Shown piece after piece: positions 15,137-43,319 of a DNA stretch of 64,000 bases. The first letter of the stretch is position 1, and each line of letters opens with the position of its first letter. Source of the DNA: Candidatus Poribacteria bacterium (GTDB taxonomy: Bacteria > Poribacteria > WGA-4E > WGA-3G); NCBI GenBank assembly GCA_965198235.1, contig OZ240248.1:3776001-3840000 (forward strand). The letters run 5' to 3'. The notes under the pieces were generated by a model that saw nothing but the letters and a program-made list of their open reading frames with translations, did not search any database and was not told the origin of the DNA. A program made the translations under genes and the position numbers.

Positions 15137-15291
15137 GGGCATCGTTCCACTTCGTTTCACGATGGTTTCTGGTGAATCCCAACGCAATTAAAGATATGTA
15201 CGCTCTTTAAGACTTTCCTTAAAAGCGTTCACAGCACCAGTTGCGTCGGACTTCACTGAAAACTACTGCGGAAAGTAATGGAGCAGTGATC
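15137..15291. repeat. Inverted pair of 13-nt-loop hairpin elements; also 17352-17468, 18508-18541 (single) and 43154-43307
   Basis: Consensus GRAACC-N5-GNAANGWARTGGA-N5'-GCCC with N5/N5' complementary in all seven copies. Confidence 0.8.
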
Positions 15292-15316
15292 AGAGTCCCA
15301 TAGGTAAAAAACAATT

Positions 15317-16354
15317 CTAAATCTGCTGCATCCATGTATAAATTTGGCGAAGTGCACTCTCACTCTTTGTCCACAACGCTCTTTTCAGTGGCGAAATTAT
15401 CTTTGTGTAACTGGCGAAGTCTGTCCGGACGGCGCGATACTGTTCCTTATGCGCAATTAACCCTGTGTTCTCTGGTGGCGATGCGCCGAAATCCACCCAT
15501 TCGTATTGTTCATGACACGCCCGTGTGATGATGTGATGGAAAATCGCGTTGTTAGGACGGTATTTCAGGAACGCTGGCGCAGATGCTTCACACCACAACG
15601 TTACGGTCTTATTGAAGAATAGATAGAGCAGTCCTGCGATAATTGTGCCACGATATGTGGCGATAGCAAGTTTGGCGATTTTCCGCTGCAGGAGTGTCTG
15701 CATAAGCGCGCACGGTTTCGGGGTGCCACCTAACCGTTTTACTGTCATGAGATACATGTCGTAAAAGGTGGATAAAGCCGCTTCGCTATCTGTGTCCGTG
15801 ACTGTCACACCCGATTTCTCTGCCTTCCTGACCGCGCCCCGTACCCGTTTGTTATAGGCGTGCCAGAGGGATTCAACATCTCCGTTCGTTTTCAAAAGAT
15901 GTGTGAAATGGTCCGTTCGTTCGTAGCCCATTTCATCGAAAAGATCGTCGTCCGTCGTGGTGTGATTAGGTGTCAGTGTCCAACGGATTTCACACCATCC
16001 CTTTGCTGCTGCTGCGGCTTCGATGGACCTTATCAGTGTTTCAGGGTTTATTTGCCCTGATTCGATAAGGTGTACACCACCAAATAGATTCCACGGCATT
16101 GAGTGCCATAGACGGATGCCCGGTATTGGTTGAAAGACGAAGGCAGGCAGCCCACCTATCACTGAATCATCTTGATTGATGAGTAGGTAAGTTGGGCGTA
16201 GGGGTTGGGTTACCCAACTCCTACCAAACGTGCTCGCTAATGCATCTCGCCACGCGAGACTTTGAAAGGCAGTCGTATCTGGACATTGCCGAAGAATGGC
16301 ATCCCATTTATCCTGATTTTGAGGGGTCAAAGGGTCTAAGATGTACACATGCAT
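15317..16354 (-). CDS. GNAT/FemAB-like acyltransferase domain protein
   Basis: FQSLAW, KRVRGAVRKAEKSGV, PNNAIFHHII...WVDFGAS...HKEQY. Confidence 0.8.
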   Translation of the reverse strand: MHVYILDPLTPQNQDKWDAILRQCPDTTAFQSLAWRDALASTFGRSWVTQPLRPTYLLINQDDSVIGGLPAFVFQPIPGIRLWHSMPWNLFGGVHLIESGQINPETLIRSIEAAAAAKGWCEIRWTLTPNHTTTDDDLFDEMGYERTDHFTHLLKTNGDVESLWHAYNKRVRGAVRKAEKSGVTVTDTDSEAALSTFYDMYLMTVKRLGGTPKPCALMQTLLQRKIAKLAIATYRGTIIAGLLYLFFNKTVTLWCEASAPAFLKYRPNNAIFHHIITRACHEQYEWVDFGASPPENTGLIAHKEQYRAVRTDFASYTKIISPLKRALWTKSESALRQIYTWMQQI

Positions 16355-16393
16355 ATCTTGTAGGAGCGAGCTCCAGCTCGCGATTCCTTAGAG

Positions 16394-17332
16394 TTATGCC
16401 GCCAGTGCCGCGAACAGTGCCTTAATGTAACCGACAGAATAAGCTAACCCAACATCGCCTTCTAATTTCGGGATGTGATCGGCGTTGATACATCCGTCAA
16501 ACCCGACTTTTTGTAGTTCACGGACGATTTTGAAAGCGTTCATGTCGCCATCGTCAAGGAGGACTTCCTCAAACGCTCCGGCTGTTGCAAGGCTACCGCG
16601 GACGTTCCGTAGATGAACCATGAAGATACGCCCTTTACGTCCGTAGTTGTTGATTTCGTCAAGAACAATCGCACTACCTCCAGCCTCCGCCCGAGTGCCA
16701 CAACAATAGAGATAGCCAACGTTTCTGCTCGGGAAGGTATCAGTGACACGGTGGAAGCCGAGACCGCCGAGGGGTGTATCCGGGTTCGGCACGTCTGACG
16801 GATGGATAGCGATTTTAATGTCGTATTCATCGGCGATAGGTACGAGTGCTCCGTAAATTTCGGTAAAACGTTTCCACCATTCGTCAAGTGCTTCCATCGT
16901 CGGTGTGGATGGTGGATTTTGGGTTGCGGCACGGCTTTCGCCACGGGAGGTATAACCCCCCCTATGTACGGATGAATAACGTGTCATTAGATAGTCAAAC
17001 GTATCACCCCAAAATCTCTGGCGCGCAATAGGCACACCAGCTTCAGCGAAGACCCGGAGGGCATTACACGTGTGCTCTAACTCCTTTTCGCCATCGGGTT
17101 GACCCCGCATAAACTTTTCTGTGATATTCGGAAGCGTCACGCGGTTGATATCAAGTCCCCAGGAACGGATCCGTTTTTTGATTTTCAACAATTCGTCTAA
17201 GTCGGGGTAACCCTGTTCTTCAACTCCGGGAAAAGCATTACCGCCCCCAAAGTCGATACAGTCTGCACCGAGTTGTGTAACCTGTTTGAGATAGCTATCA
17301 GAAAGTCCGCCATCCCAGACTGAAATTTTCAT
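16394..17332 (-). CDS. uxuA: Mannonate dehydratase (UxuA) family
   Basis: IAIHPSD, HLRNVRG, EVLLDDGDMN, ADHIP, AYSVGYIKAL. Confidence 0.8.
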   Translation of the reverse strand: MKISVWDGGLSDSYLKQVTQLGADCIDFGGGNAFPGVEEQGYPDLDELLKIKKRIRSWGLDINRVTLPNITEKFMRGQPDGEKELEHTCNALRVFAEAGVPIARQRFWGDTFDYLMTRYSSVHRGGYTSRGESRAATQNPPSTPTMEALDEWWKRFTEIYGALVPIADEYDIKIAIHPSDVPNPDTPLGGLGFHRVTDTFPSRNVGYLYCCGTRAEAGGSAIVLDEINNYGRKGRIFMVHLRNVRGSLATAGAFEEVLLDDGDMNAFKIVRELQKVGFDGCINADHIPKLEGDVGLAYSVGYIKALFAALAA

Positions 17333-17480
17333 GTTTTAAATGATCTCCTCTGGGCATTGCTCCATTACATTCCGCAATGGTTTCCGGTAAAGTTAGCAAC
17401 CTCTCATAACCTAAAGCGGGTTCTCAACTTAGACGGAGACCGTTGTGGAACGAAGTGGAACAACGCCCATATTCAATAAA

Positions 17481-18488
17481 TTAAAAAGGTAACGAAACGG
17501 GTTGCCCGCTCTCAACAGATTGATATGCAGCCAATGCGATTTCGACTGCGGCACGACCGTCTAAGCCTGTGATAGGTGGCGATGTGTCGTTACGGATTGC
17601 GTCTACGAAGACGCGAATTTCTTCTTCAACCGGTGACGGCACCTTGATATCTGCCACTTTAATCTGTCGTCCTTCACCCTCAAAAGGTTTAATCTGGATG
17701 GCTGCATCGCCTCCCCAGATCTGTGGAAAATAGATGGAACCGCCTTTGCAATCGACGCGTCCGCCATAACCACCGACAGCGGAGACATGACTGGAGTGGA
17801 GCAATCCGACCGCTCCGTTTGCAAACTGCAAGGAAGCAAGCACAACATCTGGATAGTCGCTTTTATCTGGTCCGTATTGTCCGCCGATGGCATAGACAGA
17901 GGCTACATCTCCACAGGTCCAACGCATAAAGTCTATTTCATGGGCGTTGATTTCCATGAGACTCCCGCCAGACTTCGCACGCTCCAGTCGCCATGGTGTG
18001 TGACTGTACCCACTGCGCCATGGGCCCCCGATCCGATGCACCATCATACAGGCGGGTGCGCCGAGTTCCTCGCTCTGCACAATTTCACGAACGACGGAAT
18101 GCGTCCCGTGGTAACGACATACCAAGCCGATCGTAAGTTTGACACCGTTTGCGTCTGCGGCGGCAATCATCGCGTCGCAGGCCTCCAACGTAGGTGCCAT
18201 CGGTTTTTCGGAAAATACATGTTTGCCTGCATTCGCGGCATCGACTGCCATCTGTGAGTGCATAAATGGTGGTGACGCGATTAGGACTGCACGAATCCGA
18301 TCATCGGCGAGTAATTCGTGGTAATTTAGTGTATAGGACACACTAAGGTCTGTGGCAAGTTTTTCAGCCAGTGCTTCTTGCACATCACTGACAGAGATAA
18401 CTTCTATTCCCTCAACAGCATGGGCACTGGTGGCAAGGCTTCTGCCCATGCCACCGCATCCGATAACGCCAACTCCAATCGTTTCCAT
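17481..18488 (-). CDS. Gfo/Idh/MocA oxidoreductase
   Basis: GVIGCGGMG, GKHVFSEKPM, GGSLMEINAHEID; start at METIG after RBS. Confidence 0.9.
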   Translation of the reverse strand: METIGVGVIGCGGMGRSLATSAHAVEGIEVISVSDVQEALAEKLATDLSVSYTLNYHELLADDRIRAVLIASPPFMHSQMAVDAANAGKHVFSEKPMAPTLEACDAMIAAADANGVKLTIGLVCRYHGTHSVVREIVQSEELGAPACMMVHRIGGPWRSGYSHTPWRLERAKSGGSLMEINAHEIDFMRWTCGDVASVYAIGGQYGPDKSDYPDVVLASLQFANGAVGLLHSSHVSAVGGYGGRVDCKGGSIYFPQIWGGDAAIQIKPFEGEGRQIKVADIKVPSPVEEEIRVFVDAIRNDTSPPITGLDGRAAVEIALAAYQSVESGQPVSLPF

Positions 18489-18543
18489 TTTTAATTTATG
18501 GCCTCCTGGGCTGCGCTCCACTTCGTTTCGCGCAGGTTTCCGA

Positions 18544-19443
18544 TTATCTCCGTCTTGCTTTGATATGACCCCAAGTAACGCTCAAATGGCTCGCTGAAGG
18601 ACTGACATCAAGCCCTGTAGCTTCCATGTTGTTCTGAACCTCTGCTGCACTCAGAACGCGATCGTAAATTCGGAATTCGTCAATATACCCCTGAATCGTA
18701 TCGCAATCGCATCCATCTGACCGATCCCCAATGCCGAGGAGAAGCCCTCCCTTTGAAATCTTACCGCCCTTCATGGCGTACTTTTTTTCCTGTTTTCCAT
18801 TCACATAATAGTGAACCGTTTTACCATCATAGGTGCCAGTGAGGTGCAGCCACTCTTCAAGTGGGATGTCCTCCAGTACATTGTCCTGTGCAGCCACCGT
18901 TGATTGGCCACCGGCTCTGACGAAGAAGCCGTGTTGGTTGTCGTCATCGTCATAGTAAAGGCTCGCGACTGCGCTGTTCGTTGGCATATCGTCGAGTGAG
19001 ATAATCCGATTCCAACTGTCATCCAAGGCGTTGACGTAGACCCAACATTCCAAGGAGATCTCCTCCCAATCCCGATCGATTTTCGGTGGGTTTGAATCTT
19101 CAACGAGGAATCGGTCAACACTCCCATCAAAAAGGATGCACTCGCCGACTTTGCAATCGGAGGCGGGTGCGAGTTCAGGGTCCCCCTTAACAGCGGCAGC
19201 GAGTCCTGACAGGAGATCTACCGCCTCGGTTTTGATCTTTACCGTGTCTTTGTCGAAGGACCAATAGGCGATTAAGCCATCTTCAACCGCTCCGACAATT
19301 GCATCGGTAGGTTGGGCATTCCATCCGAGGAACGCGATAAGGAGAAGGGCGAATGCGCGTTTGGCATTCGCAAAGACTGTAAAGAACCGTGAATTTTCCA
19401 CAAAATGTCTGCTCTGAAAACGGGCACCGTTTTTTAGACGCAT
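18544..19443 (-). CDS. Secreted LamG domain protein with C-terminal V-S-P...HL..TW..IK motif
   Basis: GLIAYWSFD, WLHLTGTYDG, GYIDEFRIYDRVLSAAEV; tail DVSPSASHLSVTWGHIK. Confidence 0.85.
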   Translation of the reverse strand: MRLKNGARFQSRHFVENSRFFTVFANAKRAFALLLIAFLGWNAQPTDAIVGAVEDGLIAYWSFDKDTVKIKTEAVDLLSGLAAAVKGDPELAPASDCKVGECILFDGSVDRFLVEDSNPPKIDRDWEEISLECWVYVNALDDSWNRIISLDDMPTNSAVASLYYDDDDNQHGFFVRAGGQSTVAAQDNVLEDIPLEEWLHLTGTYDGKTVHYYVNGKQEKKYAMKGGKISKGGLLLGIGDRSDGCDCDTIQGYIDEFRIYDRVLSAAEVQNNMEATGLDVSPSASHLSVTWGHIKARRR

Positions 19444-19571
19444 GATTCATTTCCTCCTTCTACCTAATACAGGGGTATGAGTGAGCCAAAGGATGGATAC
19501 TTCGGTTCACAATGTAGGTTCGTTAGGACGTGAGGTATAGATGTCTCGTGTTACACCGAAAAGGAACGGGT

Positions 19572-20966
19572 TTAAAACATGTCGCGCATGGCACGTTCAC
19601 GCCGATCCGCGATTTGACGTTCACGCTCCTCATCAGACTGCCGACCATGTGGTACAGCAATGATGGGTCGGTATTCGGCGACTTCGCTCTTGCGCTTGAA
19701 CACTCGGAAGAAGTCGAAACGGGTTAAGGTTGGCGGAATGTTCCCGGGACACAGTGAATGTACCCCAACATGCACCGAATTTCCCATGCCAACGTTGGTT
19801 TGCCCACAGCTTTTCCATTGAATGCCGTCGTCACTGGCGAAAGCGGAGAATTGGTTACCTCTACGTTCCATGCGTAAGAAGAGTTCTCGGACATTTCTAA
19901 GTCCACTGCTACGTCCGCGTAGATTAAATGAGCGTCCGACGTGGCGTTCAAATCGGACATCGCCTCTGAATGCGTGTGGTCCCGAGGTTTTTTCAAGTCT
20001 GAGGAATCGATTGGGATTTTTCCATACCAATAAGCCACCGTGTTCTTTCAGTTGTGGCGAGATTCGCATGCGAGTTTCAATAGCGAAGTCTCCAGCGACT
20101 TCCATGAGGAGACGGGGTGCACTCATATCGCCGCTTCTGCCGTCTGGACCGTGCCAAAGGTCTTGCCCGGGTTCAGTCCGCATTTCCAGATAGCCTTGGC
20201 GTTCTGCCCAGGAACCGCCGCCTTTCGGGTCGTCCCACCGCCATTCCGGACGCATACGGTTTCCGATGAACTCATCTTCAAATACCATCTCTGTGAACTC
20301 ACCAGAAGATGCCCATCCTTCAATCTTCACAGCGGAGATAGAATCTCCAAAGTTTTGGGGGAGTAAATGGAGGTTCGGCAACTCCTTTTTGTATTCCGAG
20401 GGTTCCATGCGTATGGGTAGAGGTGCCCCCTCAAAGTCAGGGTGTTCGTAAAAGACCACCTCCGCGCCATGTCGCGGGAAATCCGGTCCTTTGAAGATGC
20501 GGATTGACGAAATTCGGTCTTCAAACCAAGTACCACCTTGCGCATCCCGTAGGTTGGCGATATCGCGCAGAATGGTGATTTTTCTACCTCGGAATTCGAC
20601 GTGTTCGTAGCAATCCACAATCAGCGGGATAGTCCCCCACTCCGGTCCAACCACCTCCAGCGTGGAACCGAAGTTGATTGATGAGATTCTGTCGGCGAAG
20701 TTGTAAGCGGTGTCGTGCAGGTTCGGATAAAATCCGGGCCCGAGTGCTAACTTTTGACCGCGGAAATGGCGATGCTGGTAAAGGATGACTTTGTAATTCG
20801 GGTTCGACGAGAAGTTCGGACCCTTATAGACACGAACAGAAGAGATATTGTCTTGAAACCCGATGTCTCGTGTAAAGGGAACAGGCTCCACAACATATCC
20901 CATTCTGCCCCGGAAGTTTGTATGTTGGAACACCTCAACAACGAGGCGCGGTATGACGACTGGCAT
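19572..20966 (-). CDS. Beta/gamma-crystallin (four Greek-key motifs) fused to DUF1349/ConA-like domain
   Basis: Four [FY]xHxxFxG...D[NRS]IS[SA][VI] repeats; C-terminal DLW..APRL..GDF.IET..GL.VW..FLRLE pattern. Confidence 0.8.
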   Translation of the reverse strand: MPVVIPRLVVEVFQHTNFRGRMGYVVEPVPFTRDIGFQDNISSVRVYKGPNFSSNPNYKVILYQHRHFRGQKLALGPGFYPNLHDTAYNFADRISSINFGSTLEVVGPEWGTIPLIVDCYEHVEFRGRKITILRDIANLRDAQGGTWFEDRISSIRIFKGPDFPRHGAEVVFYEHPDFEGAPLPIRMEPSEYKKELPNLHLLPQNFGDSISAVKIEGWASSGEFTEMVFEDEFIGNRMRPEWRWDDPKGGGSWAERQGYLEMRTEPGQDLWHGPDGRSGDMSAPRLLMEVAGDFAIETRMRISPQLKEHGGLLVWKNPNRFLRLEKTSGPHAFRGDVRFERHVGRSFNLRGRSSGLRNVRELFLRMERRGNQFSAFASDDGIQWKSCGQTNVGMGNSVHVGVHSLCPGNIPPTLTRFDFFRVFKRKSEVAEYRPIIAVPHGRQSDEERERQIADRRERAMRDMF

Positions 20967-21050
20967 TATTTTCTCCTTTTTTAATGGTTATCAGTTTTAA
21001 CCATCAACTCGCACATTGATAAAAGTGTTAAGGCACGAGTTGATGGTTAA

Positions 21051-21131
21051 GGTTTTCAGTTTTCAGTTAAGAGGTTTCATTTAGAGGTTGCCTCTTGTGA
21101 CTGACGACTGTTAACTGTTAACTGTTAACTA
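21051..21131. repeat. Short heptamer tandem repeats (ACTGTTA/CTGACAA/TTATCGG-like); similar tracts at 2613-2645, 23329-23440, 37441-37490, 55020-55037, 56657-56693
   Basis: Direct reading of 7-nt periodic intergenic tracts, often as converging arms. Confidence 0.6.
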
Positions 21132-22221
21132 TTTTGAGAGCTGCCTCATAGATTTGAGCATATCCACTCCGATCGGATGTGAATACAACGTGCTTGCCAT
21201 CCGGGCTGAAGGACGGGTGTGGATGTGTATGTTGTGGTGCGTAAACCTGAATCGGACCCGCAGCATACGGGAACGGTCCATTCCAATGCTCACCAATAGA
21301 TGAGGCGTTGGGATAGCATAACGTCTGCGGTTCGCCGATACCGTCACGTGGATCAAAAATTTGGATACCAATATCCGGGAAATTAGTATCTGCCACCATA
21401 AGTGTTCCAGCAGAATCGCTAATGGCATGCCATGCGTTGACCGTTGTCACTTGTCGGTCTATTCCGGTATCGACGTTGACACACCTCACACCCCGGGGCC
21501 AATCGACAAAAGCGAGTTCACGCGTTCCTGGAATCCACGTTTCATGTGTGATCCATTCGTTCTTTTCAACGTTACGGGCATAGAGGCGACGGTTTCCACT
21601 TCCGTCGCGATGGATTACCCACAGTCGATCGGTAAGGGGACCCGCATAGTAGAGCAGATTGGGATCATCGGGACAGAATTGAAGGTGTCCGATACTATCT
21701 CTCCGTAAGATGATATCGTGCCCGCCGGTGTCTGTGTCTATAATAGCGAGTGCGGATTCTTTACCGATGTTGAATCTCACAGCCCACCATCGATTATCGT
21801 GACTCAAGGCGGTAGTGCCCATAGCGGCGGCGACCATACCTTCGTCCTGCATCGCCGTTGCGGCGAAATTGACGAGTTCGCGCTCCTCAAGCGTCTCCAA
21901 ATCTACTTTCCATCCGCTTGTACCTGCTGTGAAGAAAACCGCTTTTCCATCGCGCGAGGGATGCACCGACCATTCCGAGAGGTCAGGTCTGTCTGTTAAT
22001 TGGCGAAGTTCACCCGTCGTCCGTTCTTCTGCGAATATCTGGGGTGTCCCTGTTCGGTATGAGACAAATATCAGCCGCTGCATCGCATCGTCATACGCAG
22101 GTATGATGAAGAATGGATGGTGGTGCAACGCGGACGCAGTCGTCACTTGTCGGATCTGTATTCCGGTGCATCGATCATAAAAGGTCCGTGATTCAGGGGG
22201 ATGAACTGTACCTTTCGCCAT
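21118..22221 (-). CDS. Oligogalacturonate lyase (Ogl)-like beta-propeller
   Basis: IGHLQFCPDD, WITHETW, WHAISD, QHTHPHPSFSPDG.VVFTSD. Confidence 0.8.
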   Translation of the reverse strand: MAKGTVHPPESRTFYDRCTGIQIRQVTTASALHHHPFFIIPAYDDAMQRLIFVSYRTGTPQIFAEERTTGELRQLTDRPDLSEWSVHPSRDGKAVFFTAGTSGWKVDLETLEERELVNFAATAMQDEGMVAAAMGTTALSHDNRWWAVRFNIGKESALAIIDTDTGGHDIILRRDSIGHLQFCPDDPNLLYYAGPLTDRLWVIHRDGSGNRRLYARNVEKNEWITHETWIPGTRELAFVDWPRGVRCVNVDTGIDRQVTTVNAWHAISDSAGTLMVADTNFPDIGIQIFDPRDGIGEPQTLCYPNASSIGEHWNGPFPYAAGPIQVYAPQHTHPHPSFSPDGKHVVFTSDRSGYAQIYEAALKIVNS

Positions 22222-22312
22222 TCTTTTAATTTTCCTTGCGGTTAAACGACGTGGTCTGTCTTTGAGCGTCCTATTCTTAAATCCTGCTTCGCAGTGAGAA
22301 CCATTTCATTTC

Positions 22313-23311: not shown

Positions 23312-23450
23312 AGTATGTCTCCTTTTATTGGTTATCGGAAACCATCGGCTATCGGCTATCAGTGAAAAGATGTCTAATTAATCAAACCCTCTTACCGACT
23401 GCTGATAGTAAGGGAAGCGAACGCCCTGACTGCCGATTGCCAATATAAAA

Positions 23451-24623: not shown

Positions 24624-25041
24624 CTTGCGTGTTTTCTCCTTTGCTTTGTAATCTGGGCTTGCAAGTTTCGCCCTATGAGGATATGTTGATTCCAAGATAC
24701 ATTATCTCATATTTTATGATTTTTTTCAAGTTTTTTGCAGCGTCATTCAGTTCTCCTGTAGAAAGGATCTCCGCGTCCGGCCCTCCTGATCACAATTTCG
24801 TTTAACTTTTCCTGGAAATCTGTTATCATTCTCACAATCGTTTACGAGGGTTCGGGTAGTAGTGCTTTGTCACGTCAACATTGAAGTATAGACATCGCGA
24901 GCATGGGGGAAATCCGAAGAAGCACCCAAGCAATACGCAGAAACACCCTATCAAAAACACCCCAAGCAAAAACACTCGCTCCTACAGGTAGAGGTTAGGG
25001 GCTTGTGCCACCTACCCCATCATTTCAAGCTTGACAAAGCA

Positions 25042-29386: not shown

Positions 29387-29517
29387 TCAGTATGCGTTAC
29401 GATATCGAGCAAGAGTAGCCCTTAAAAAACTGTAATAGGTGCTTTGAACCCTCAGAAAGCCTGTGAAATTAACCAAAAACCGCGATGGACAACAGGCATG
29501 GCGACCAGACTTAATAG

Positions 29518-29991
29518 TTAAAAAAACGATCTCGGTACTTGATAAGAGAATGTTTGAATGACCTCATTCATGAGTAGCCGTTGTGCAATAGTCTCAAGCA
29601 CTTTCGTATTCAGGGTACCAGTGAACCAATATTTATGTCCCGTGCGAACGGTAGTGACACCCGCGATACCTAAATCGGTGATACCTTTGATGGTGCTATC
29701 ACCGACTGCATCCGTAACACCGGGCTTGAATTGCACTTCAAGTGTCCAATCTATCTCGGTACCATTTTCGGTTCCAAAGGCGTAAGCTTGTGTGATAGGA
29801 TCAGCGAGGAGTTCAGTGCCGATTCGGTCAATAGTTTCTGCGTCGAGGGTTCCTTCGATCCAGTAGACTGTGGCTGTGCGCACAGAATCAATACCATTAA
29901 TACCGAGGTCAGCTATATCCTCAAGGATACCTTGTCCAACGGTATCGGGGACTTCAGGTTTATAATAAACTTCAACTTTCCAGTTTTTCAT
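29518..29991 (-). CDS. Tandem PurS-like domain protein (FGAM synthase PurS-type)
   Basis: Two repeats: VYYKPEVPD..LLADPITQ and VQFKPGVTD..LLMNEVIQ. Confidence 0.7.
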   Translation of the reverse strand: MKNWKVEVYYKPEVPDTVGQGILEDIADLGINGIDSVRTATVYWIEGTLDAETIDRIGTELLADPITQAYAFGTENGTEIDWTLEVQFKPGVTDAVGDSTIKGITDLGIAGVTTVRTGHKYWFTGTLNTKVLETIAQRLLMNEVIQTFSYQVPRSFF

Positions 29992-30135
29992 ATTTTTAAT
30001 CATGGGCCTATCTGAACACTTTTTCTCCGTTGTCGAAAAAGTGGTTTTAGGTTAAGTTAGGAATGTTCCTTAACCGAAGATCGTCAAGGACAACGGACTT
30101 GACGATCAGAAGCAATAGTTAAAAAGTGGTAAAAA

Positions 30136-33330: not shown

Positions 33331-33348
33331 ATATTGCCCTTCCTGAGT

Positions 33349-35129: not shown

Positions 35130-36350
35130 TCAAATTCTGTGTTGTCGCGTGAGTTCATAAAGTAGAACACCCGCGGCGACTCCTACGTTGAGTGATGATT
35201 GCCCTGATGCCATAGGGATGCAAACTAATTCCGTGCAGCAGTCACGTGCATCAGCGGAGAGACCTGTATTCTCATTACCTACGACGATAGCCGTGGGTCG
35301 TGTAAATTCCATTTCATGCAGTTGGTTTTTGGCACTTGCTGTGGCACCCAGCACTTGCCAACCTGAGGCACGGAGTACATCAATCGCATCACCGATGTCT
35401 GGTATGTAGAATAAGGGTAAACGACCAACTGCCCCGCGGGAAGCACGGATGCAGTTTTTATGAAAAGGGCTTGCACCTCCACCGCTCAATAGGACGGCGG
35501 TGACTCCTGCCGCGTCTGCTGTCCGTAGCGTCATTCCAAGATTATCAGGATTTCCAATGTTCTCTGCGATGAGTAATATACATCTCGGACTAAAGTGAAA
35601 ATTGAGACTTCCGGACTCCGAAAGGAAGTTGGGGTAGCTGAGATGAACCGAAGCGATTATAGATGGCACGGGTCGCGTCGTCGTAATTGAACCCATCACG
35701 CCATCGTTCACTTGATAAGAGGATAGGTTTTCTGCCGCTGCACGTTTGAGCAAAGCTCTCCCTTCGAGTGTCGCCACAAATCCTGTCGTATGGAGAAGTA
35801 TTTCGATCGGAAGTCCGTCTTCCACTGCTCGTTCTACTATCAGATGTCCTTCGATGATAAATTGGGAGTGTTCAAGTTTCCCTTTCAAAGAGGCTAATTT
35901 GCGAATATGCGAAGCTATTGTGTCCTTCCGTTTTGAGACAGTTCGTTGTTCTGCGTTTGTGCTGCTGCCGCGTTTGATACCCCGATAGAAAGAACCCGTA
36001 CCTGTCTGAACCACGCTCCCCTCTAAAACGTCGTGGATTCTGTTTTCTATCCACTTTTCGCTAAAATGAAATAGACCTGTGTATCGCCTCGGAAAAGCGA
36101 TGAGTAGTTCTCTCAAGCTCCGTTCAGTTGTCGTTGTGAGATGAACTCGGTAGTTACTGTCAGATGTGTCCTCCGGTTCTAACAACATAACCCCATCAAG
36201 CTGCTGCCAGCCTGTAACAAATACCTCGTATGCAGGGTGCCATGTGCCCGTTTTGCAGAAGGTATAATACGCCTGCTTAAAACGGGAAACGGCATCTGCA
36301 TCCAAGCTCTCTTTCTCCAAGAAAGCAATAACCTTATCGTAGTTTATCAT
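35130..36350 (-). CDS. TrmH/SpoU RNA methyltransferase with N-terminal extension
   Basis: NPDNLGMTLRTADAAG, VGNENTGL, IPM...SLNVGVAAG; ATG overlaps upstream stop (ATGA). Confidence 0.88.
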   Translation of the reverse strand: MINYDKVIAFLEKESLDADAVSRFKQAYYTFCKTGTWHPAYEVFVTGWQQLDGVMLLEPEDTSDSNYRVHLTTTTERSLRELLIAFPRRYTGLFHFSEKWIENRIHDVLEGSVVQTGTGSFYRGIKRGSSTNAEQRTVSKRKDTIASHIRKLASLKGKLEHSQFIIEGHLIVERAVEDGLPIEILLHTTGFVATLEGRALLKRAAAENLSSYQVNDGVMGSITTTRPVPSIIASVHLSYPNFLSESGSLNFHFSPRCILLIAENIGNPDNLGMTLRTADAAGVTAVLLSGGGASPFHKNCIRASRGAVGRLPLFYIPDIGDAIDVLRASGWQVLGATASAKNQLHEMEFTRPTAIVVGNENTGLSADARDCCTELVCIPMASGQSSLNVGVAAGVLLYELTRQHRI

Positions 36351-37195
36351 AGAAACGTTCCGAGATAGATTGCGCCGAGTCCGACGAATATATCCCACTT
36401 CATCCAACGTTGAATGGACGCACAACTTTCTCTGGAGGCATCTTGACACAGACGAATTGCCAAACCGATTAGCACCACATCAACACCGATTAAGACGACA
36501 AGCAAGTAGTGCCATGAATACCAACCGAATAAATATGGAATGGGGCTAAACAGAATAACAGATGCCATGAAACCAATGGCTGTCCGGACTGCAATCCGTG
36601 GATTGAGCGTAGCAAGCGTTTTCGCGTTATTTTTCAGGTCCCCTTCTGTGTCCTCAAGGTCTTTGACGATTTCCCGCGCTGTCGTGAACAAAAAGGCGAA
36701 GATTGCTGGAATGAGTGTGCCTTGCACTGAATCTATCGCTACACCGCCAGCAATGAAGGTTAAACCCGTTAATCCGCTGACGACTAAATTGCCGACAAAA
36801 GGGGTGCGTTTCAACCAGAAAGCATAGCTTACAAGTGCAACGAACACAAAGATGGCAATACCTGTAGCATTTCTATTAATAAGAGCCCCCAACCAGATGC
36901 CGATTACGGTAAGTACTATCGCAAAAATTAGTGCATCGGTACGCCGAATGCGTCCAGAAGGTAGCGGGCGCCGCGGGCGATTGATTCGGTCAATGTTGTA
37001 ATCACAGTAATCGTTTATGGCGTTTCCTGCGGAAAGCAAGACAAGCGCGGAGACAGAAACCAACAGAAGTCGGATATTGGCAAGGTTTTCCATGTTCCCT
37101 TGGCTGGCAAACATCCCACCGAGCCATGCAGAGATGAAGGCGATAATTCCGTTAAGTGGACGCGCCAACTCAAGATACGCGATCAATGTCTTCAT
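36347..37195 (-). CDS. UbiA-family digeranylgeranylglyceryl phosphate synthase (DGGGPS-like)
   Basis: LELARPLN, AGNAINDYCDYNIDRINRPRRPLPSGRI, AREIVKDLEDTEGD. Confidence 0.85.
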   Translation of the reverse strand: MKTLIAYLELARPLNGIIAFISAWLGGMFASQGNMENLANIRLLLVSVSALVLLSAGNAINDYCDYNIDRINRPRRPLPSGRIRRTDALIFAIVLTVIGIWLGALINRNATGIAIFVFVALVSYAFWLKRTPFVGNLVVSGLTGLTFIAGGVAIDSVQGTLIPAIFAFLFTTAREIVKDLEDTEGDLKNNAKTLATLNPRIAVRTAIGFMASVILFSPIPYLFGWYSWHYLLVVLIGVDVVLIGLAIRLCQDASRESCASIQRWMKWDIFVGLGAIYLGTFL

Positions 37196-37405
37196 TGTTT
37201 GTGATCGGGACCGTTGAATGATAATCTGTTAGGGGTAACGGATACTGAAGCGCGTTCCATAATACCAGCGTACGGATTGCAATATTGCTTGGACCAGAGG
37301 AGGTACAGTGGAAAAAGAACGCCTGTGCAGAAACCGGATGCGTTGGCGTACAAGTCGAGATGGGTCTTCCCTTTAGATGAAAGAGGTAGGGGCATTCAGT
37401 TCTTC

Positions 37406-37623
37406 TGTAGGAGGGAACTCCGATTCCCGACACTATTGGAAACCATCGGCTATTTTACTGACGACTGACCGCTGACTGCTGATGGCTATTCTGTAGGAGG
37501 GGGGAAATCCGCAGGGAAATCCGCAGAAATACCCAAGCAAAAACACCCCTATCAAAAACCCCAAGCAATCCGCAGAAATACCCAAGCAAAAACACCCCTA
37601 TCAAAAACACTCCGATTTCCGAC
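37406..37623 (+). repeat. Two REP copies (GTAGGAGGG..CTCCGATT[CT]CCGAC): first intact (37407-37431), second (37493-37623) expanded by tandem modules
   Basis: Direct comparison of the two copies; repeat CCGCAGAAATACCCAAGCAAAAACACCCCTATCAAAAAC occurs twice. Confidence 0.8.
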
Positions 37624-37853
37624 TCCTCTCGCAAATCAAGGAAAATCGCGAAAACTATGGTGAATCCTAAAAATGAATAGACAGTTGCTCAGTGAACCAA
37701 CCGCTCACCCCTGCTGGCGAGGATTGTATCCTCGCCTCCCCGCAATGTCCAAGTAATTGTGGGTTTTACCATAAATGACCCTAAAAAGAGGCGCATAGAG
37801 TAGACAAATCCGAGTGTGACTGATAGTGAGACACCCCGTTTCCGGTAATATGC

Positions 37854-38906
37854 CTACGATTCATCCTTCAGTTCTTGAATTTTCGCTTCCAGTTCCGCAA
37901 CCCGTTTTTGGAGTTTAGTGAATTCAGGGAGTAGTTCCGGCAATTTCCGAGTCGCCGCGTGAATTCGTAATTCCTGTTTGTGAGGGCGTGCGGGGAATCC
38001 AGACAGATGACTGCCGGCAGGCATATCCTTTGTAACTGCGGATTTGGCGTAAACAACACTGTCTTCGCCGAGGGTCAGGTGTCCTGCTGCACCTCCATGC
38101 CCCGCAATGTTCACTCGATCACCGAGCGTCGCGCTGCCAGCGATACCGACTTGTGCGGCGAGGCAGCAATCTTCTCCGATGACAACGTTATGTGCGATTT
38201 GGACGAGATTATCCAATTTGGTGCCGCGTTTGATAAGCGTTTCAGAAAGTGTCGCTCTATCAATGGTAGTATTCGCTCCAATTTCAACATCGTCTTCAAT
38301 GACCACGGTTCCGATTTGGGGAATTTTGTGGTGTCGGTTGCTAACAGGTGCGAATCCGAAGCCGTCGCTGCCAATAACTGCACCGCAGTGGATGATCACC
38401 CGGTTGCCGATGGTTACCTCTTCTCGAATACTGACATGTGGATAGATAAGACCATCAGTGCCGATCTTGGTTCCTTCACCGATGTAGGCAAAGGGCTGAA
38501 TAACGGTATCATCTCCAATCTCAACGTTGTCAGCGATATAAGCAAACGCTTGGATTGAGACGCGCTCACCGAGTTTGACGTTCTTTCCTAAAATTGCAGT
38601 CTCATGAACCCCGGGAAGTGCGCGATGGTTTTTGTCCCACGCGAACATTTCTATAACTTTGACGAAAGCCCAGTAGGGGTTCTCAACACAGATAGTAGGC
38701 TTACCGTTACCGTTGACACCGCGGCCAATAATAATTGCGCCGGCTTGTGTTGTCGCTATGGCAGCGAGGTATTTGGGGTTAGCAACAAAGGTAATCTGAC
38801 TTGGGAGTGCCTCTTTGATTCCAGAAACTCCTGTAATTTCAATATCACCGTTCCCAGAAAGATCGCCGTCCAAGCGTTCACAAATTTCCTTAAGCTTCAT
38901 ACGCAT
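37854..38906 (-). CDS. lpxD: UDP-3-O-acyl-glucosamine N-acyltransferase
   Basis: ITFVANPKY, hexapeptide repeats, GSDGFGF, KIPQIG.V.IEDDVEIGANTTIDR, DNLVQIAHNV. Confidence 0.95.
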   Translation of the reverse strand: MRMKLKEICERLDGDLSGNGDIEITGVSGIKEALPSQITFVANPKYLAAIATTQAGAIIIGRGVNGNGKPTICVENPYWAFVKVIEMFAWDKNHRALPGVHETAILGKNVKLGERVSIQAFAYIADNVEIGDDTVIQPFAYIGEGTKIGTDGLIYPHVSIREEVTIGNRVIIHCGAVIGSDGFGFAPVSNRHHKIPQIGTVVIEDDVEIGANTTIDRATLSETLIKRGTKLDNLVQIAHNVVIGEDCCLAAQVGIAGSATLGDRVNIAGHGGAAGHLTLGEDSVVYAKSAVTKDMPAGSHLSGFPARPHKQELRIHAATRKLPELLPEFTKLQKRVAELEAKIQELKDES

Positions 38907-38991
38907 TTAGCCTTAATCCTTTCTCCGTAGATGTGAATGGTTATTCGGGGTTACAAACCCCTCCCACAACTGGAGTTTAGGCAGTGTAGCG

Positions 38992-39537
38992 TTATTCGGA
39001 GTTTTCGTTCATCAAGCCGATTAACTGTTGTGTCAAATCATATTCCTTTTTCACATAAAGTGTGATGAGTCGTTTTTCGAGGATGATGTCAAAATCTTCG
39101 GACTCACCGACTTTGACAATCAGTTCTTGAAGGCTGTTGTAAATCGGTTCCATTAACTCTTGCTCTTTTTCAAGCAGTGCTTGCTGGCCGATTTCGACAT
39201 CACGTTGGTATTCCTGCTGTTTGAGACGAATTTCGTTTTCCAAATCCGCGGTCTGTGCTTTTTCAACGAAGAGTTCTGTTTTCGCCTTCTTTTCCTGCAG
39301 TGCTCTGATATCGTCTCCTAACTGCTGCAACTTCGTTTTCAGGCGTTCGCTTGCCGCTTGGAGCAGTTCGGTTGCATCCGTCGCTTTTTGGGATCCTTCT
39401 AAAACCTGTTGTGTGTTTACGACACCGATTTTGAAAGATTCCTGCCCGATACTTCCCGTACTGAAACAGAAAACTGTGAGACCGATAATTAATAGAATTA
39501 GGTGTGCTTGGCAAGCACCCAACCGAAATGGTTTCAT
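38992..39537 (-). CDS. skp: OmpH/Skp periplasmic chaperone
   Basis: KIGVVN.QQV, coiled coil, FDIILE...YDLT; between bamA and lpxD. Confidence 0.85.
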   Translation of the reverse strand: MKPFRLGACQAHLILLIIGLTVFCFSTGSIGQESFKIGVVNTQQVLEGSQKATDATELLQAASERLKTKLQQLGDDIRALQEKKAKTELFVEKAQTADLENEIRLKQQEYQRDVEIGQQALLEKEQELMEPIYNSLQELIVKVGESEDFDIILEKRLITLYVKKEYDLTQQLIGLMNENSE

Positions 39538-39713
39538 AATTTGAATCCTTACTTTGTCATATAGATGGCAAGCAAATTTCAAGAGTTTGTTGTTACACGC
39601 TGACACAGCGAGCAAAAATAAAAATTATACTTGCCGTGAAAAAAGATCTGCACCTGGATGCTAATAATGTGTGCTGTTAGTACTTTCAATACCTGCCAGT
39701 GCAGGACGTTGTT

Positions 39714-42164
39714 TTAGAAGCCCGGACCAACCGTGAAATGGAATTTGCCAGCGGGTTCGCCGCTGACGCGATCCAAGCCATATCCCCAACCTAATCGAAC
39801 TAACATGCCGAGCATGGTAAACCGAGCCTCAAGACCGAGTCCTTTTTTCATGCTGATTTGGTTGAAGACGTTTGTAGTGCTTTCATCCCATACCTGCCCT
39901 ATGTCAAAAAACAGAGCTGCTGTGAGTTGCTGAGAAATTGGGACACGATACTCAAAGTTTGCAAAGAATACCTTATCACCACCGTACGGATTGATAAAAC
40001 CCGATTCATCTGGATCAGGATAGATTTCCCAATCTTCGTAGCCACGAATGCTATCTACACCACCGAGGAAAAAGCGTTCATAGAACAGGAAGTAAGCATC
40101 GGTGCTTTTACTTCGCATGATACCTGCGCGGCCATGCACGGCGATAACGTGGTTCCACCATCCACTGTAGAACCAACTCGCGTCCGCATAATATTTTTGG
40201 AACTTGTTGTCCGCTCCAAGAATACCACCGGAGTATTCATAAGAAAGTGTATGAAATGAACCCGCTGTTGGGTCAAACAGGGAGGTACGATAATCGCGGG
40301 TGTCCCTTCCGAGAGCGAACAGAATACTTCGTGTGGAGCGGTTGTATAACTCCCGATCAGGGTTGTGTGATTCTACATGTTCATTCCGAAAACGCACGGA
40401 CAAATCAATGTCATGTGCGATGGGTCTTCCGAGTGTTAGCGATGCCCCTCGTCTTGCCCAAACGTATCGGTCGTATAAGTAGTTACTCCCTACACGACGG
40501 TTATAGAGAGCACCGATCGTTCCGTAGTAGCGACGGAAGCGGCGGTTGTCGTAAATCCGGGCATTAAGCCGGGTGGGTGTTCCCAAAATCCAAGGTGTGC
40601 CAAAACTGAGTTCAGCTGTGTGGTGATCCCTGGTGCCTAATTCGCCTTTTAAGTGGACCCGATACGCTTGTCCACGAAAGTTATTTTGTCCGACCTCTGC
40701 GACACCGAAGATACCGCCTTCGCTGCCGTATCCACCTCCGAGACTCAGCATTCCTGTTCGCGGTGTTTCCGCGATATTAACTCTTAACTCCTTTCGATTC
40801 TCTTCACCGGTATCACTCGGAACAAAATCAACAGCACGAATAAAAGAACCCATCTGGAACAAACGTTGCCGCGCTTTGCGCAGGGATTTAACATCTAATA
40901 ACTCATCCGACTTGATGTCCAAAAAATCCAACTCACGTTTGACAACGTGTTCTTTCGTTTTTTCTAATCCGGTAATGATTACCTTGTCGATAATTATGAC
41001 ATCTCCTTCGTTGATTTTCAAGGTAATGTCAACCACGCCGTCCACTTCATTGAAAGTCGGAGTCGGTAGGACTTCTGAAAGTAGGTAACCTTTATCGAGA
41101 TAAGCTTGCTGTAACTTTGCGATTGATTCGTCGAAAGTAGCGCGGTTAAAGACCTCACCTTCTGCGGGGTCGAGCATCCCGCGTATCTTTTTTTCAGAAA
41201 AGAGGTTCTTAGCCCCGGCTTCCACTTCAAGTGTATAGGTTCCGATAATAAATTCGGGACCTTCGTCAACAGTAATGTCAAGCATTAAGCCGGTCTTGTC
41301 CTCTGTGAACCGTTTTTCGTAGCCGATGACCTTCACCTGTGCAAAGCCTCGATCCTGATAGTAATTTCGGATGTTCAGAGATAAATCTTCTTCCTCAAAC
41401 AGCATCTGATCGAAGGGTTTCCCGGTGCGGGTTTTGAGTTTTTTCTGGAGTGTATTCACGGAGATATGTGTGTTTCCAATAAAGTTGATTTCCTCAATCC
41501 GCACCCTCGGTCCTTCGTTTATCTCAAACGTGACTTGGACAGTATTCGCCTCTTCGTCTTTATCTCCAAGGTGGGTTTGGATGCTGGCAAGATAGTATCC
41601 CTTTTCGTGATAAAGTTTTTGTAGCGCTCGCTCGCTTTCCCACCGTCGCCGGTCGCCATAAATTTCTGAAGGACGAAGTATAATCTCATTCTTAACTTTG
41701 CCGGTACTCAAATTTTCGTTTCCAATAATGTTAATTCCAGAGATTTTTGGACTTTCGACGACCTTGTAAATAATTTCTAATCCACCGCCTTCAAACGGCT
41801 TCACGTCTACTGTGAGTTCGGAGAAGAAGCCTGTATCTTTGAAGAGGCTTTTCAGATCTTGCGTGAGGAGTTCTTCAGAGACTTCCTGCTCGACCTGCGT
41901 CTGAATAAGGGTACGCAGCATATCTTCGGAGGAAGTTTTCACACCTTCAAAAGAGATTTTCTTGACGAGGAGCCTCGAATCGCTGACGGGTTTGGTAGTG
42001 TTTGCTGTGGTGTCTTTATCAGACTCAGTTCCCACCTGCTGTTCGGTGGTCGTAGCTGCCTGGGGACCAAATACTGGTTTTTCGGTCTCTTCTGCAAAAG
42101 CGGCGATCGCTGCAAGTCCGATGAATAGGCTTATGAGAATAAAAACGTTTTTTGGCGCACTCAT
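39714..42164 (-). CDS. bamA: Outer membrane protein assembly factor BamA
   Basis: POTRA repeats (ISFEG, INIIGN, INFIGN), FFLGG.DSIRGY, C-terminal F. Confidence 0.93.
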   Translation of the reverse strand: MSAPKNVFILISLFIGLAAIAAFAEETEKPVFGPQAATTTEQQVGTESDKDTTANTTKPVSDSRLLVKKISFEGVKTSSEDMLRTLIQTQVEQEVSEELLTQDLKSLFKDTGFFSELTVDVKPFEGGGLEIIYKVVESPKISGINIIGNENLSTGKVKNEIILRPSEIYGDRRRWESERALQKLYHEKGYYLASIQTHLGDKDEEANTVQVTFEINEGPRVRIEEINFIGNTHISVNTLQKKLKTRTGKPFDQMLFEEEDLSLNIRNYYQDRGFAQVKVIGYEKRFTEDKTGLMLDITVDEGPEFIIGTYTLEVEAGAKNLFSEKKIRGMLDPAEGEVFNRATFDESIAKLQQAYLDKGYLLSEVLPTPTFNEVDGVVDITLKINEGDVIIIDKVIITGLEKTKEHVVKRELDFLDIKSDELLDVKSLRKARQRLFQMGSFIRAVDFVPSDTGEENRKELRVNIAETPRTGMLSLGGGYGSEGGIFGVAEVGQNNFRGQAYRVHLKGELGTRDHHTAELSFGTPWILGTPTRLNARIYDNRRFRRYYGTIGALYNRRVGSNYLYDRYVWARRGASLTLGRPIAHDIDLSVRFRNEHVESHNPDRELYNRSTRSILFALGRDTRDYRTSLFDPTAGSFHTLSYEYSGGILGADNKFQKYYADASWFYSGWWNHVIAVHGRAGIMRSKSTDAYFLFYERFFLGGVDSIRGYEDWEIYPDPDESGFINPYGGDKVFFANFEYRVPISQQLTAALFFDIGQVWDESTTNVFNQISMKKGLGLEARFTMLGMLVRLGWGYGLDRVSGEPAGKFHFTVGPGF

Positions 42165-42227
42165 AATTAGATGTCCTCCTGTATGTTGTAGGCTTGCCAC
42201 GCGTTTGTGGCACGGTATATTATACCG

Positions 42228-43109
42228 TCATACTTCAGCGGTATATATTGGGGTGCCGCAGCTATGTGCGAACTGCCGAAATGCAGCAATTAATTTTTCT
42301 GTCACCTTTCCGGGCTGCCCGTTCCCGATGCCGCGTCGGTCTATTTTCACGACAGGTATAACCTCGGCGGCTGTGCCGGTTAGAAAACATTCATCCGCAA
42401 TGTAAAGGTCGTGTCGTGTAAAAACGCGCTCTTCAACTTGCATTCCAGCATCACGTGCAAGATCGATAACGCTGTTCCGGGTTACACCTTCCAGAATTCC
42501 CATGTGAACCGGTGGCGTGACAAGGACCTCATTCTTTACCCAGAAAATATTGTCACCGCTACATTCAACAACATAGCCTTCTGCATTAAGCATCAAGACC
42601 TCTTCTGCACCCGACTGTTTCCCTTCAATTTTTGCTAATATATTATTTAGATAGTTCAGCGACTTAATGCGTGGATTAATGGCTTCTGAATAATTCCTTC
42701 GAACAGAGGCAGTTACGATTTCCAATCCATCTTCATAGAATTTCTGTGGGTAGAGGGTAATTTTATCTGCAATAATAATGATGCTCGGCGTTGGACATTT
42801 ATCCGGATCGAGTCCGAGATCTCCTACGCCGCGAGTTACAACCAATCGAATATAGGCTTCCGTGAGATGATTGCGACGGAGTGTTTCCAGAACCGTTTCC
42901 TTCATCGTTTCAATAGGGATAGGGATCTGTAACATGATTGATTTCGCAGAATCGTAGAGTCGCTCAAGATGTTCATCGAGTTTAAAGACTCTACCGTTAT
43001 AGGAACGGATGCCTTCAAAAACACCGTCACCGTAGAGCAAACCGTGATCGAACACCGAGACCTTTGCTTCTGCTTTTGGTAAAAATTCTCCGTCGATGTA
43101 AATCAACAT
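42228..43109 (-). CDS. ilvE: Branched-chain amino acid aminotransferase
   Basis: DHGLLYGDGVFEG, KSLNYLNN, LEGVTR, FLTGTAAEV. Confidence 0.93.
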   Translation of the reverse strand: MLIYIDGEFLPKAEAKVSVFDHGLLYGDGVFEGIRSYNGRVFKLDEHLERLYDSAKSIMLQIPIPIETMKETVLETLRRNHLTEAYIRLVVTRGVGDLGLDPDKCPTPSIIIIADKITLYPQKFYEDGLEIVTASVRRNYSEAINPRIKSLNYLNNILAKIEGKQSGAEEVLMLNAEGYVVECSGDNIFWVKNEVLVTPPVHMGILEGVTRNSVIDLARDAGMQVEERVFTRHDLYIADECFLTGTAAEVIPVVKIDRRGIGNGQPGKVTEKLIAAFRQFAHSCGTPIYTAEV

Positions 43110-43319
43110 TTTTTAATTATGGCCTCCTGAGTTTTTTAACTATGGGGCTTTTTGGCCACCGCTCCATTACATTACGCGGTGGTTTCCGATGAACCTCAAC
43201 CCTATTAAGGATCTGAATATTTTTCTCTTTCTTAATTAACTGCACGACTTTAGAATATCAGTTTAGGATGATCAGAAACCTGCCCGTAATGAAATGGAGG
43301 GCAGTCCAGTGCCCCAAAA

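Follow-up and report, generated by a model that had tools for sequence, protein, structure and literature searches.

A covarying 23-nt hairpin at the core of a probable mobile repeat family in Candidatus Poribacteria

Seven hairpins between the genes of the window

We analysed a window of 64,000 nucleotides from a Candidatus Poribacteria genome (assembly GCA_965198235.1, contig OZ240248.1, positions 3,776,001 to 3,840,000), in which seven copies of a 23-nt hairpin stand in spacers beside genes for a sulfatase, a UxuA-like protein, a Gfo/Idh/MocA oxidoreductase and a class IV aminotransferase (ilvE); Pfam backs these gene names. Poribacteria, symbionts of sponges, have not been cultivated and are known from metagenomes alone; this metagenome-assembled genome, labelled G000 in our comparisons, comprises 5.17 Mb in two contigs and is 96.3% complete. 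The positions, strands and sequences of the seven hairpins are all as an earlier note on this DNA had given them: each has a perfect 5-bp stem, and each stem is different. Every hairpin is the core of a longer unit with a 5' flank and a 3' tail, which we call class A:

15118..15178, minus strand: class A unit with hairpin 15141-15163 (ATCGT / GAAACGAAGTGGA / ACGAT); the 5' flank ends CACCAGAAACC, and the tail GCCCAGGAGCAAGAAATTAAAAA abuts the ATG of the sulfatase gene (13759-15117, minus strand)
15252..15311, plus strand: class A unit with hairpin 15265-15287 (ACTGC / GGAAAGTAATGGA / GCAGT) and tail GATCAGAGTCCCATAGGTAAAAAA; it faces the stop codon (15317-15319) of a minus-strand GNAT/FemAB-like gene, and its inverted partner is the 15141 copy
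17334..17487: tail-out doublet with hairpins 17356-17378 (minus strand) and 17442-17464 (plus strand), 63 nt apart; it is the entire spacer from the Gfo/Idh/MocA stop to the UxuA-like start
18489..18547, minus strand: single class A unit with hairpin 18512-18534 (TGCGC / GAAACGAAGTGGA / GCGCA); it is the whole spacer from the LamG-like stop (TAA, 18544-18546) to the Gfo/Idh/MocA ATG (18486-18488)
43110..43326: tail-out doublet with hairpins 43158-43180 (minus strand) and 43281-43303 (plus strand), between the ABC-ATPase stop (43320-43322) and the aminotransferase IV ATG (43107-43109); an extra solo tail remnant, CTCAGGAGGCCATAATTAAAAAA, adjoins the aminotransferase ATG

The earlier note had called the stem fully covarying, and the alignment of the seven copies bears this out: all five pairs form in all copies, each pair varies on both sides, and the covariation score is 0.912 versus 0.305 with shuffled partners, a value that none of 500 shuffles equals. 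Offsetting the partner by 1-3 columns brings stem pairing down to 18-55%. The loop pattern GNAANGNANTGGA matches eight times in the window versus 0.58 expected, and none of 100 shuffles reaches eight; the eighth match, at 59219 on the plus strand, is attributed to chance because its flanks are unpaired and it lies inside coding sequence. A covariance model built from the seven copies and run with filters off finds the same seven only, at 47-58 bits, the next match scoring 15 bits. Statistically the signal is overwhelming.

Six of the copies form inverted pairs, as had been noticed: three tail-out doublets with 101, 63 and 100 nt between their hairpins. The four minus-strand copies do lie upstream of start codons, with AGGAG 14-15 nt from the ATG. 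The three plus-strand copies face stop codons of minus-strand genes, not starts.

A modular repeat family across the genome

The loop pattern matches 467 times genome-wide, with five Watson-Crick stem pairs in 223 matches and four in 136. Sorting by flanks (at most one loop mismatch, at least four stem pairs) separates a main class from two others. Class A, with about 245 copies, reads ..TT.A.C..AAACC, hairpin, G..CAG, N10, TTAAAAA, and forms a unit of about 60-67 nt. Its 5' flank is weakly conserved, fading out about 20 nt from the hairpin, and on the 3' side conservation breaks off right behind TTAAAAA. Class B (92 copies) reads CGT-AG..hairpin..CG-GATCTACGGAAAGG ... AACCGCAAGGAAAATTAAAAA, and in class B2 (19-28 copies) the hairpin is followed by GGGGTTTTTGCTTGGGTGTTTCT; about 110 copies lie in these two other scaffolds, for a total of about 355. 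In the genome search, all 150 candidates that were scored, of 1,896 first-look candidates, matched the covariance model built from the window.

The stem is perfect in 210 of the 242 class A copies on the main contig, with one G.T pair in 10 and one mismatch in 22, and the perfect stems take 29 distinct sequences. Paired positions make up a fraction of 0.982, against 0.596 ± 0.016 when the 3' arms are dealt out randomly, and five of five pairs form in 189 of 214 copies picked by loop and flanks only, with the stem ignored. The "13-nt loop" of the earlier note is conserved in sequence but is not unstructured, for its inner positions pair: an A at loop position 4 stands opposite a T at position 10 in 241 of the 242 copies, positions 5 and 9 covary (C-G in 150, T-A in 87, other in 5), and the outer oppositions 1/13, 2/12 and 3/11 are G.A, N.G and A.G. 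The layout is that of a 5-bp stem, three purine-rich oppositions, two further pairs and a GNA triloop. The copies conserve the hairpin as a structure, in line with the structure-selected motif that the earlier note had proposed. Its suggestion of a mobile-unit end signal comes near to the data, but its suggestion of CsrA-type translational control is not supported; stems are not mostly unpaired, nor is placement random, copies standing at gene boundaries.

Placement was scored against 3,965 longest-ORF (open reading frame) gene calls, which make all distances to gene ends approximate. Outside the called ORFs lie 221 of the 245 class A copies, and 24 lie inside. The tail always adjoins a gene boundary, and on the 5' side the other gene is typically at least 150 nt away. 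A gene start is faced by 115 copies, at a median hairpin-to-start distance of 24 nt, and the end of an opposite-strand gene by 106 (lower quartile 16 nt, median 24 nt), where the stop codon is often the TAA within the TTAA of the tail. Between co-directional genes the orientation of class A is unbiased, 99 copies running with the genes and 92 against them (p = 0.66), so that half of the copies would be transcribed as the complement; class B is biased, at 54:18 (p = 2.6e-5). As a look at replication-strand bias, class A copies split by cumulative GC skew, a profile too weak and unbalanced here to build on (minimum 0.37 Mb, maximum 4.05 Mb), number 88 plus and 107 minus in one part and 23 plus and 24 minus in the other.

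Within the tail, TTAA occurs at +12..+24 in 201 of 242 copies and AGGAG in 42 of 242, in which case it stands 14-15 nt from the ATG. AGGAG is commoner in start-facing tails than in end-facing ones (29/115 vs 10/104, Fisher p = 0.0027); in 49 of the 115 start-facing copies the hairpin is 20-28 nt from the start, and 17 of these 49 carry AGGAG. Host selection is visible in this enrichment of Shine-Dalgarno (SD)-like tails before genes, and the link to ribosome-binding sites that the earlier note had proposed is real, if secondary.

Neighbouring class A copies pair in one arrangement only: 34 pairs are (-,+), tail-out, and none is (+,-). Their spacers form recognisable sub-families and measure 61-63 nt in 14 of the 34. 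A looser criterion, based on the scaffold, finds an inverted partner within 420 nt for 80 of 242 copies (about 40 doublets) and none for 162. A doublet measures about 150-220 bp, and its termini, CTATGGGC..hairpin..GGTTTC // GAAACC..hairpin..GCCC..ATAG, amount to terminal inverted repeats. Folded as RNA, the 17334-17487 doublet forms one long hairpin (-59 kcal/mol, z = -6.07) in which the two 23-mers pair with each other via G.U wobbles.

The scaffold holds alternative fillers at its apex. Where the AAACC...G..CAG...TTAAAAA scaffold holds a 23-nt filler, this is the canonical 23-mer in 122 of 144 cases. Eight copies hold the 13-mer ATCGT-GGA-ACGAT instead, explicable by slippage between two TGGAAC words, and in about 40 copies with fillers of 62, 65 and 76 nt the loop is interrupted by an insert, ...TTAAATGGCATAATTTGTCTTTGCTTTACA... 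The scaffold also hosts two other nested palindromes and two sister hairpins of the same length, with loops GACAACGGA and AACAACGGC. Three sister hairpins, whose stems again differ yet pair in the same AAACC...G.CAG...TTAAAAA scaffold, lie in the window, where the seven-copy covariance model matches their region weakly, at 29474 and 30012:

29476-29524, plus strand: sister hairpin, loop GACAACGGA or near variant
29993-30048, minus strand: sister hairpin, loop GACAACGGA or near variant
30077-30125, plus strand: sister hairpin, loop GACAACGGA or near variant

The class B scaffold accepts the same alternative fillers as class A, and identical 23-mers recur in up to 26 contexts, across scaffolds A and B and also beside T-runs. 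The genome search for an empty scaffold with an intact docking site returned deletion products only, the 13-mer among them. As to termination, B2 alone, with its hairpin followed by GGGGTTTTTGC, looks like an intrinsic terminator, in appearance only as no terminator scan was made, and we set this reading aside. The hairpin type with loop AACAACGGC is also found elsewhere in the genome and at window position 56726.

Presence, absence and replacement of copies among relatives

The strict class A pattern occurs in 55 of the 56 genomes of the genus, with 193 copies here versus 0-56 in congeners. In the sister genus it is found in 3 of 38 genomes, with 1-2 copies, and in genus g10 in one of two genomes, at a single site whose flanking five bases are unpaired; none of the three genomes of genera g11 and g12 (same family) has it, and none of 52 genomes outside the family in the same phylum. 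A backwards-read control pattern gave 0-1 matches. In its strict form the pattern is all but restricted to a single genus. The only congener without it, G070 (4.4 Mb, 95% complete), is also the only one that lacks a match to Y1 transposases, a single case.

The sites themselves are polymorphic for presence and absence. For the spacer upstream of ilvE we retrieved 80 loci from other genomes and compared the first 43 (L007-L049). The site is empty in L012, L014 and L016, where 2-3 bases (GGTTTTTTAAAAATG) separate the ABC-ATPase stop from the aminotransferase start; L015 and L019 are similar. It is filled in the window and in several other genomes, by a tail-out doublet between ...TTTTAA and TTAAAAAATG, with TTAA on both sides: the empty form has one TTAA and the filled form two, the boundaries being fuzzy by 1-2 nt. 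Elsewhere the site holds doublets whose stems differ, a doublet with 39 nt inserted into one hairpin loop, expansions of the B2 type, loop-to-loop deletions or a plain GGAAGGAAAC-N5-ATG spacer. A second empty site of a class A doublet reads GATTTTTAACAAAAGCC (with TTTTTAAC); both empty sites show a T-run plus TTAA. From these two comparisons, TTAA may be duplicated at insertion.

The other three spacers of the window, followed in 29 congeners, range from 1-30 nt up to about 490 nt in length; class A units stand there in a minority of the genomes, the rest holding class B units, other palindromic repeats or tandem arrays. The 18512 singlet recurs, with a TGCGC 5' arm, at the same place in six syntenic loci: it is complete in L092, L095, L096, L097 and L116 (one with an altered 3' arm) and truncated in L104. 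The 17334-17487 doublet is common to two genomes. The 15141 copy and its orthologues in L090 and L109 have tails about 85% identical around a replaced hairpin, as judged by eye. In two more syntenic blocks of 20 kb, set against five congeners, the genes align at 80-94% and the spacers do not; the seven class A copies of G000 there (in four spacers) are missing from every retrievable orthologous spacer of both blocks, and the relatives have hairpins at spots where G000 has none. A class B unit of about 100 nt gives a clean insertion: G000 and G014 have the empty site (..TTTGGA|TTGCGATAGAGG..), and G071 and G064 have the filled one; in G018 the same site is filled and bears, in addition, a 39-nt insert nested in the loop.

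Three further observations on spacers stand beside these comparisons. In the G064 and G041 orthologues of L117 3302-3584, the downstream start codon apparently consists of the two final bases of the hairpin 3' arm and the first tail base; the junction reads ..ACGAT/G TCC AGA TTC AAT, and the common tail variant G.CCAGATTCAAT resembles the first codons of the gene. The spacer between the aminotransferase and a BamA-like gene (window 42200-42228) is, in most relatives, a conserved and repeat-free AGGAGG-N8-10-ATG leader. A 60-nt intergenic repeat at L117 378-438 (C1:1547377-1547437) has 98-100% identical copies in four other species of the genus, and is much better conserved between species than class A units.

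Origin of the family and its kinship to known repeats

On balance we favour an old, diversified family of non-coding repeats, akin to repetitive extragenic palindromes (REPs) and miniature inverted-repeat transposable elements (MITEs), whose hairpin core would be needed for propagation; a non-autonomous mobile repeat is the best-supported account, nearer the truth than a dedicated translation switch. Units would enter T-run/TTAA/A-run sequences at gene junctions and, because such sites lie mostly at stops and just before starts, the tail would come to rest against a gene boundary in either orientation. Over the time separating the species of the genus, sites would be gained, lost, overwritten and nested into. 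The hairpin would be kept because the propagation machinery, a putative enzyme, reads it, most likely as folded single-stranded DNA, and lineages retaining the hairpin would be the ones that leave copies. An inserted unit would join the leader or trailer of an mRNA, where host selection could then favour SD-like tails before genes. A palindromic doublet between a stop and a start may hold both codons adjacent in the folded RNA, which may make such insertions tolerable in operons.

True paralogue groups are 93-97% identical over 67 nt, one of them with five members, and the 17442 arm of the window has a 93%-identical paralogue at C1:3270788, where the doublet itself has a paralogue: at least some doublets are copied as whole units. 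We read this as an old family of many lineages with occasional recent copying.

Several results weigh against this account. The mean pairwise identity of class A is 0.60 and the median nearest neighbour 0.83-0.84, with no young burst; no pair reaches 95% over 59 nt ungapped, and one pair reaches 97% over the 67-nt unit. In 570 pairs with identical 23-mers the flanks are no more alike than in random pairs, and the similarities of 5' flank, hairpin and tail are weakly correlated (r about 0.1, equalled in none of 300 permutations). Such motif-like, unlinked conservation is also expected from purifying selection in situ, from module exchange and from short-patch conversion, and it is because the account leaves this weak linkage unexplained that our confidence goes no higher. 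The isolated 23-mers fold unremarkably as DNA under nearest-neighbour rules (-1.2 to -4.4 kcal/mol, z -0.4 to -2.7). TTAA duplication is seen in two empty/filled comparisons only, and the class B insertion is without obvious target duplication. Singlets exceed doublets about 2:1, unlike in REPINs (inverted REP doublets). The gene calls behind the distances are crude. None of 28 transposase genes in the three families searched (6 Y1, 16 DDE_Tnp_1, 6 DDE_3) is bracketed by the hairpin within ±2-2.5 kb, as the parent insertion sequence (IS) or REP-associated tyrosine transposase (RAYT) should be, and 137 of the 151 phylum genomes have Y1 genes, independently of the repeat.

A bolder version of the mobile-repeat account, which we regard as doubtful, makes the 23-nt hairpin and its sister types (GACAACGGA, AACAACGGC) self-contained nano-elements, installed or exchanged at the scaffold apex independently of the scaffold. 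A hairpin-specific activity would read the fixed loop and the sequence-free stem; the unlinking of hairpin and flank, the sharing of a module by three scaffolds and the use of loops as preferred landing sites for nested elements would follow. A second bold reading is compatible with it: doublets may persist because their long hairpin draws the upstream stop and the downstream start together, so that translational coupling would survive 150-200 bases of inserted sequence.

MITEs offer one parallel. Correia/NEMIS elements of Neisseria are MITEs with TA/TTAA targets, and the class A doublets resemble MITEs in being non-coding, about 150-220 bp long, bounded by terminal inverted repeats and probably inserted at a short A/T target that is then present on both sides, in lying frequently beside genes whose leaders they alter, and in presence/absence polymorphism. 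They differ in that no parent IS with the same ends was found among the 28 Y1, DDE_Tnp_1 and DDE_3 genes, and in that each terminal repeat also stands alone and has a covarying hairpin for its core. Another parallel is the small dispersed repeats (SDRs) of heterocystous cyanobacteria, which Elhai and colleagues reportedly described in 2008 (Genome Research) as 21-27 nt long with a shared secondary structure and compensatory changes, and which are said to occur inside mini-transposons, beside tandem short repeats and with nested insertions. The Poribacteria 23-mer is likewise found in several kinds of scaffold, next to TTTTTGCTTGGGTGTTTCT-type repeats and with inserts nested in it; phylum and sequences differ, and no intact empty docking site was found for the 23-mer, deletion products aside.

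The closest rival, which we hold to be unlikely, is a REP/REPIN family moved by the genome's own Y1 (RAYT-like) HUH transposase acting on single-stranded hairpins. REPs have conserved stems, and the Poribacteria repeat reverses this, with a free stem and a fixed loop. REPINs, as described in PMC3116915, are small palindromes outside genes that number in the hundreds, show compensatory changes and form inverted doublets of preferred spacing, and the present family shares these traits with the GI-GIII repeats of P. fluorescens SBW25 and the bacterial interspersed mosaic elements of E. coli, down to its size and to doublets that fold into long hairpins. Large copy-number gaps between close relatives, and singlets interpretable as remnants, extend the likeness (PMC3116915). 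Class B moreover carries a CGTAG tag 5' of the hairpin, as do the GTAG REPs (PMC3733652), CGTAG occurs within about a third of the loops, and a clean insertion without obvious target duplication would suit this mode of transposition. Class A, however, lacks a GTAG or CGTC tag, its flanks being AAACC and GCCC, lacks a flanked RAYT, has more singlets than doublets and is placed tight against start or stop codons. TTAA on both sides of its doublets is not expected of HUH transposition either.

None of the Y1 genes is flanked by the hairpin within 2.5 kb: five of the six have no hairpin at all within that distance, and the Y1 at 119838-120191 (tnpA with tnpB) has three unpaired copies of different kinds 1.3-2.2 kb off, while its two sister IS copies have none. 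Y1 number and copy number are uncoupled (six genes and 193 copies here, 15 genes and five copies in G031); G070, lacking both pattern and Y1 match, is a single case in the other direction. Within 2 kb of the 22 DDE genes there are just two lone matches, a class A copy near 174125-174568 and, near 1280754-1281188, a site whose flanks are of another kind, and a regex search for tail-like termini without a hairpin revealed no IS end. Three Y1 genes are solo, and one of them is flanked by a different palindrome, GCACCCCGTAGGGGTGC, which suggests that a classical REP/RAYT system operates alongside the hairpin family. The palindrome CACCCCGTAGGGGTG, present at window 47280-47294, forms inverted pairs (L006 1358-1422 and 2012-2076) that flank a solo Y1 at C1:1898763-1899242.

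Somewhat less likely again is a host cis-regulatory RNA, a leader hairpin that binds a protein or gates the ribosome and so controls about 100 or more genes. Strong covariation around an invariant loop, conservation that is motif-like with unlinked variable positions, the 49 of 115 start-facing hairpins that lie 20-28 nt from the start, and the enrichment of AGGAG in start-facing tails would all fit such a module. Metatranscriptome contigs (four runs, one study) do contain the elements, and one contig of 1,914 nt (RNA library X3) spans the whole 17334-17487 doublet, but these contigs carry no strand, ends or level, and DNA carry-over is possible. The metatranscriptome contigs often stop at the hairpins, beyond which they have many alternative continuations; DNA contigs end at these repeats as well. 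We disfavour a dedicated 5'-leader switch because of the absence of strand bias, the 106 copies that face gene ends and the absence of sites before the same genes in close relatives. The downstream genes are, besides, functionally unrelated, and the hairpin also occurs in other scaffolds and beside T-runs. Nor does it match any Rfam family: Rfam 15 gave no hits in the window at gathering thresholds, and at E<=1 the interval 15050-18650 gave just two matches, SNORD57 (20 bits) and, over the doublet, MIR5512 (28 bits against a cut-off of 139). MIR5512 is a plant microRNA precursor, matched because the doublet forms a long hairpin.

The CsrA site of the earlier note is a special case of such control. 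As in CsrA/RsmA hairpins, a GGA lies in the apical region of a short hairpin near a ribosome-binding site; here, however, it stands at the 3' edge, opposed to G.A, most copies are without an SD sequence (AGGAG, when present 14-15 nt from the ATG, is limited to 42 of 242 tails), orientation is even (99 vs 92), and the CsrA domain PF02599 is unmatched in this 96.3% complete genome. On present evidence, this is not a new class of regulatory RNA.

It is improbable that the paired stems are a by-product of quasi-palindrome template switching, or of short-patch conversion among about 400 copies. The near absence of linkage between hairpin type and flanks, the identical 23-mers in up to 26 contexts of scaffolds A and B, and the hairpin swapped over an approximately 85% identical tail in the 15141 comparison (by eye) are what such a process would leave, but it leaves the invariant loop positions and the inner C-G/T-A covariation unexplained, and it would probably call for conversion tracts of unusually small size, 23 nt started from 13 shared bases. 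Least probable of all is a DNA-level host site spread by selection (such as a promoter of transcripts with a short leader or none, or the binding site of a nucleoid or topology protein), which would tolerate either orientation and would accord with position-specific conservation (AAACC, TGGA, G..CAG, TTAAAAA), variable spacers and a sharp end before many starts, but a protein that reads sequence has no need of covarying stems, half of the copies would drive transcription into convergent genes from their 3' ends, and the sites are not conserved at orthologous genes. An informal comparison by eye found that the conserved blocks misfit the spacings of sigma-70, sigma-54 and extracytoplasmic function (ECF) promoters.

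In the literature collection searched, judged by its listings, no paper describes Poribacteria repeats. The spacers between Poribacteria genes are in large part made of nested mini-repeats with hairpin cores, drawn from a few families, whose turnover is much quicker than that of the genes; this bears on the annotation of operons and start codons, on assembly breaks and on strain typing. The unusually strict tie to stop/start junctions sets the element apart, and its several hundred insertions there would form a natural experiment on how mobile DNA at translation signals is filtered and co-opted. A fixed apex on a free stem points to a mode of recognition, and perhaps an enzyme, not yet described; the significance would be high if the 23-mer were indeed independently installed, or if a new hairpin-reading enzyme stood behind it.

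Other repeats share the spacers of the window and its relatives. Words resembling TTTTTGCTTGGGTGTTTCT, tandem or dispersed, lie at window 24918-24957, 37525-37592, 10338-10356 and 55291-55309, and in relatives they expand 3' of the hairpin (B2 type) into arrays of variable length. A small perfect palindrome, GGCGAGGTTTCTAACCTCGCC, at window 63367-63387 recurs in spacers of this genome and of its relatives. Contig C2 (43.9 kb) duplicates exactly the hairpins and flanks of C1:797-811 kb (C2:23183 corresponding to C1:798594), as either a duplicated segment or an unresolved assembly alternative.

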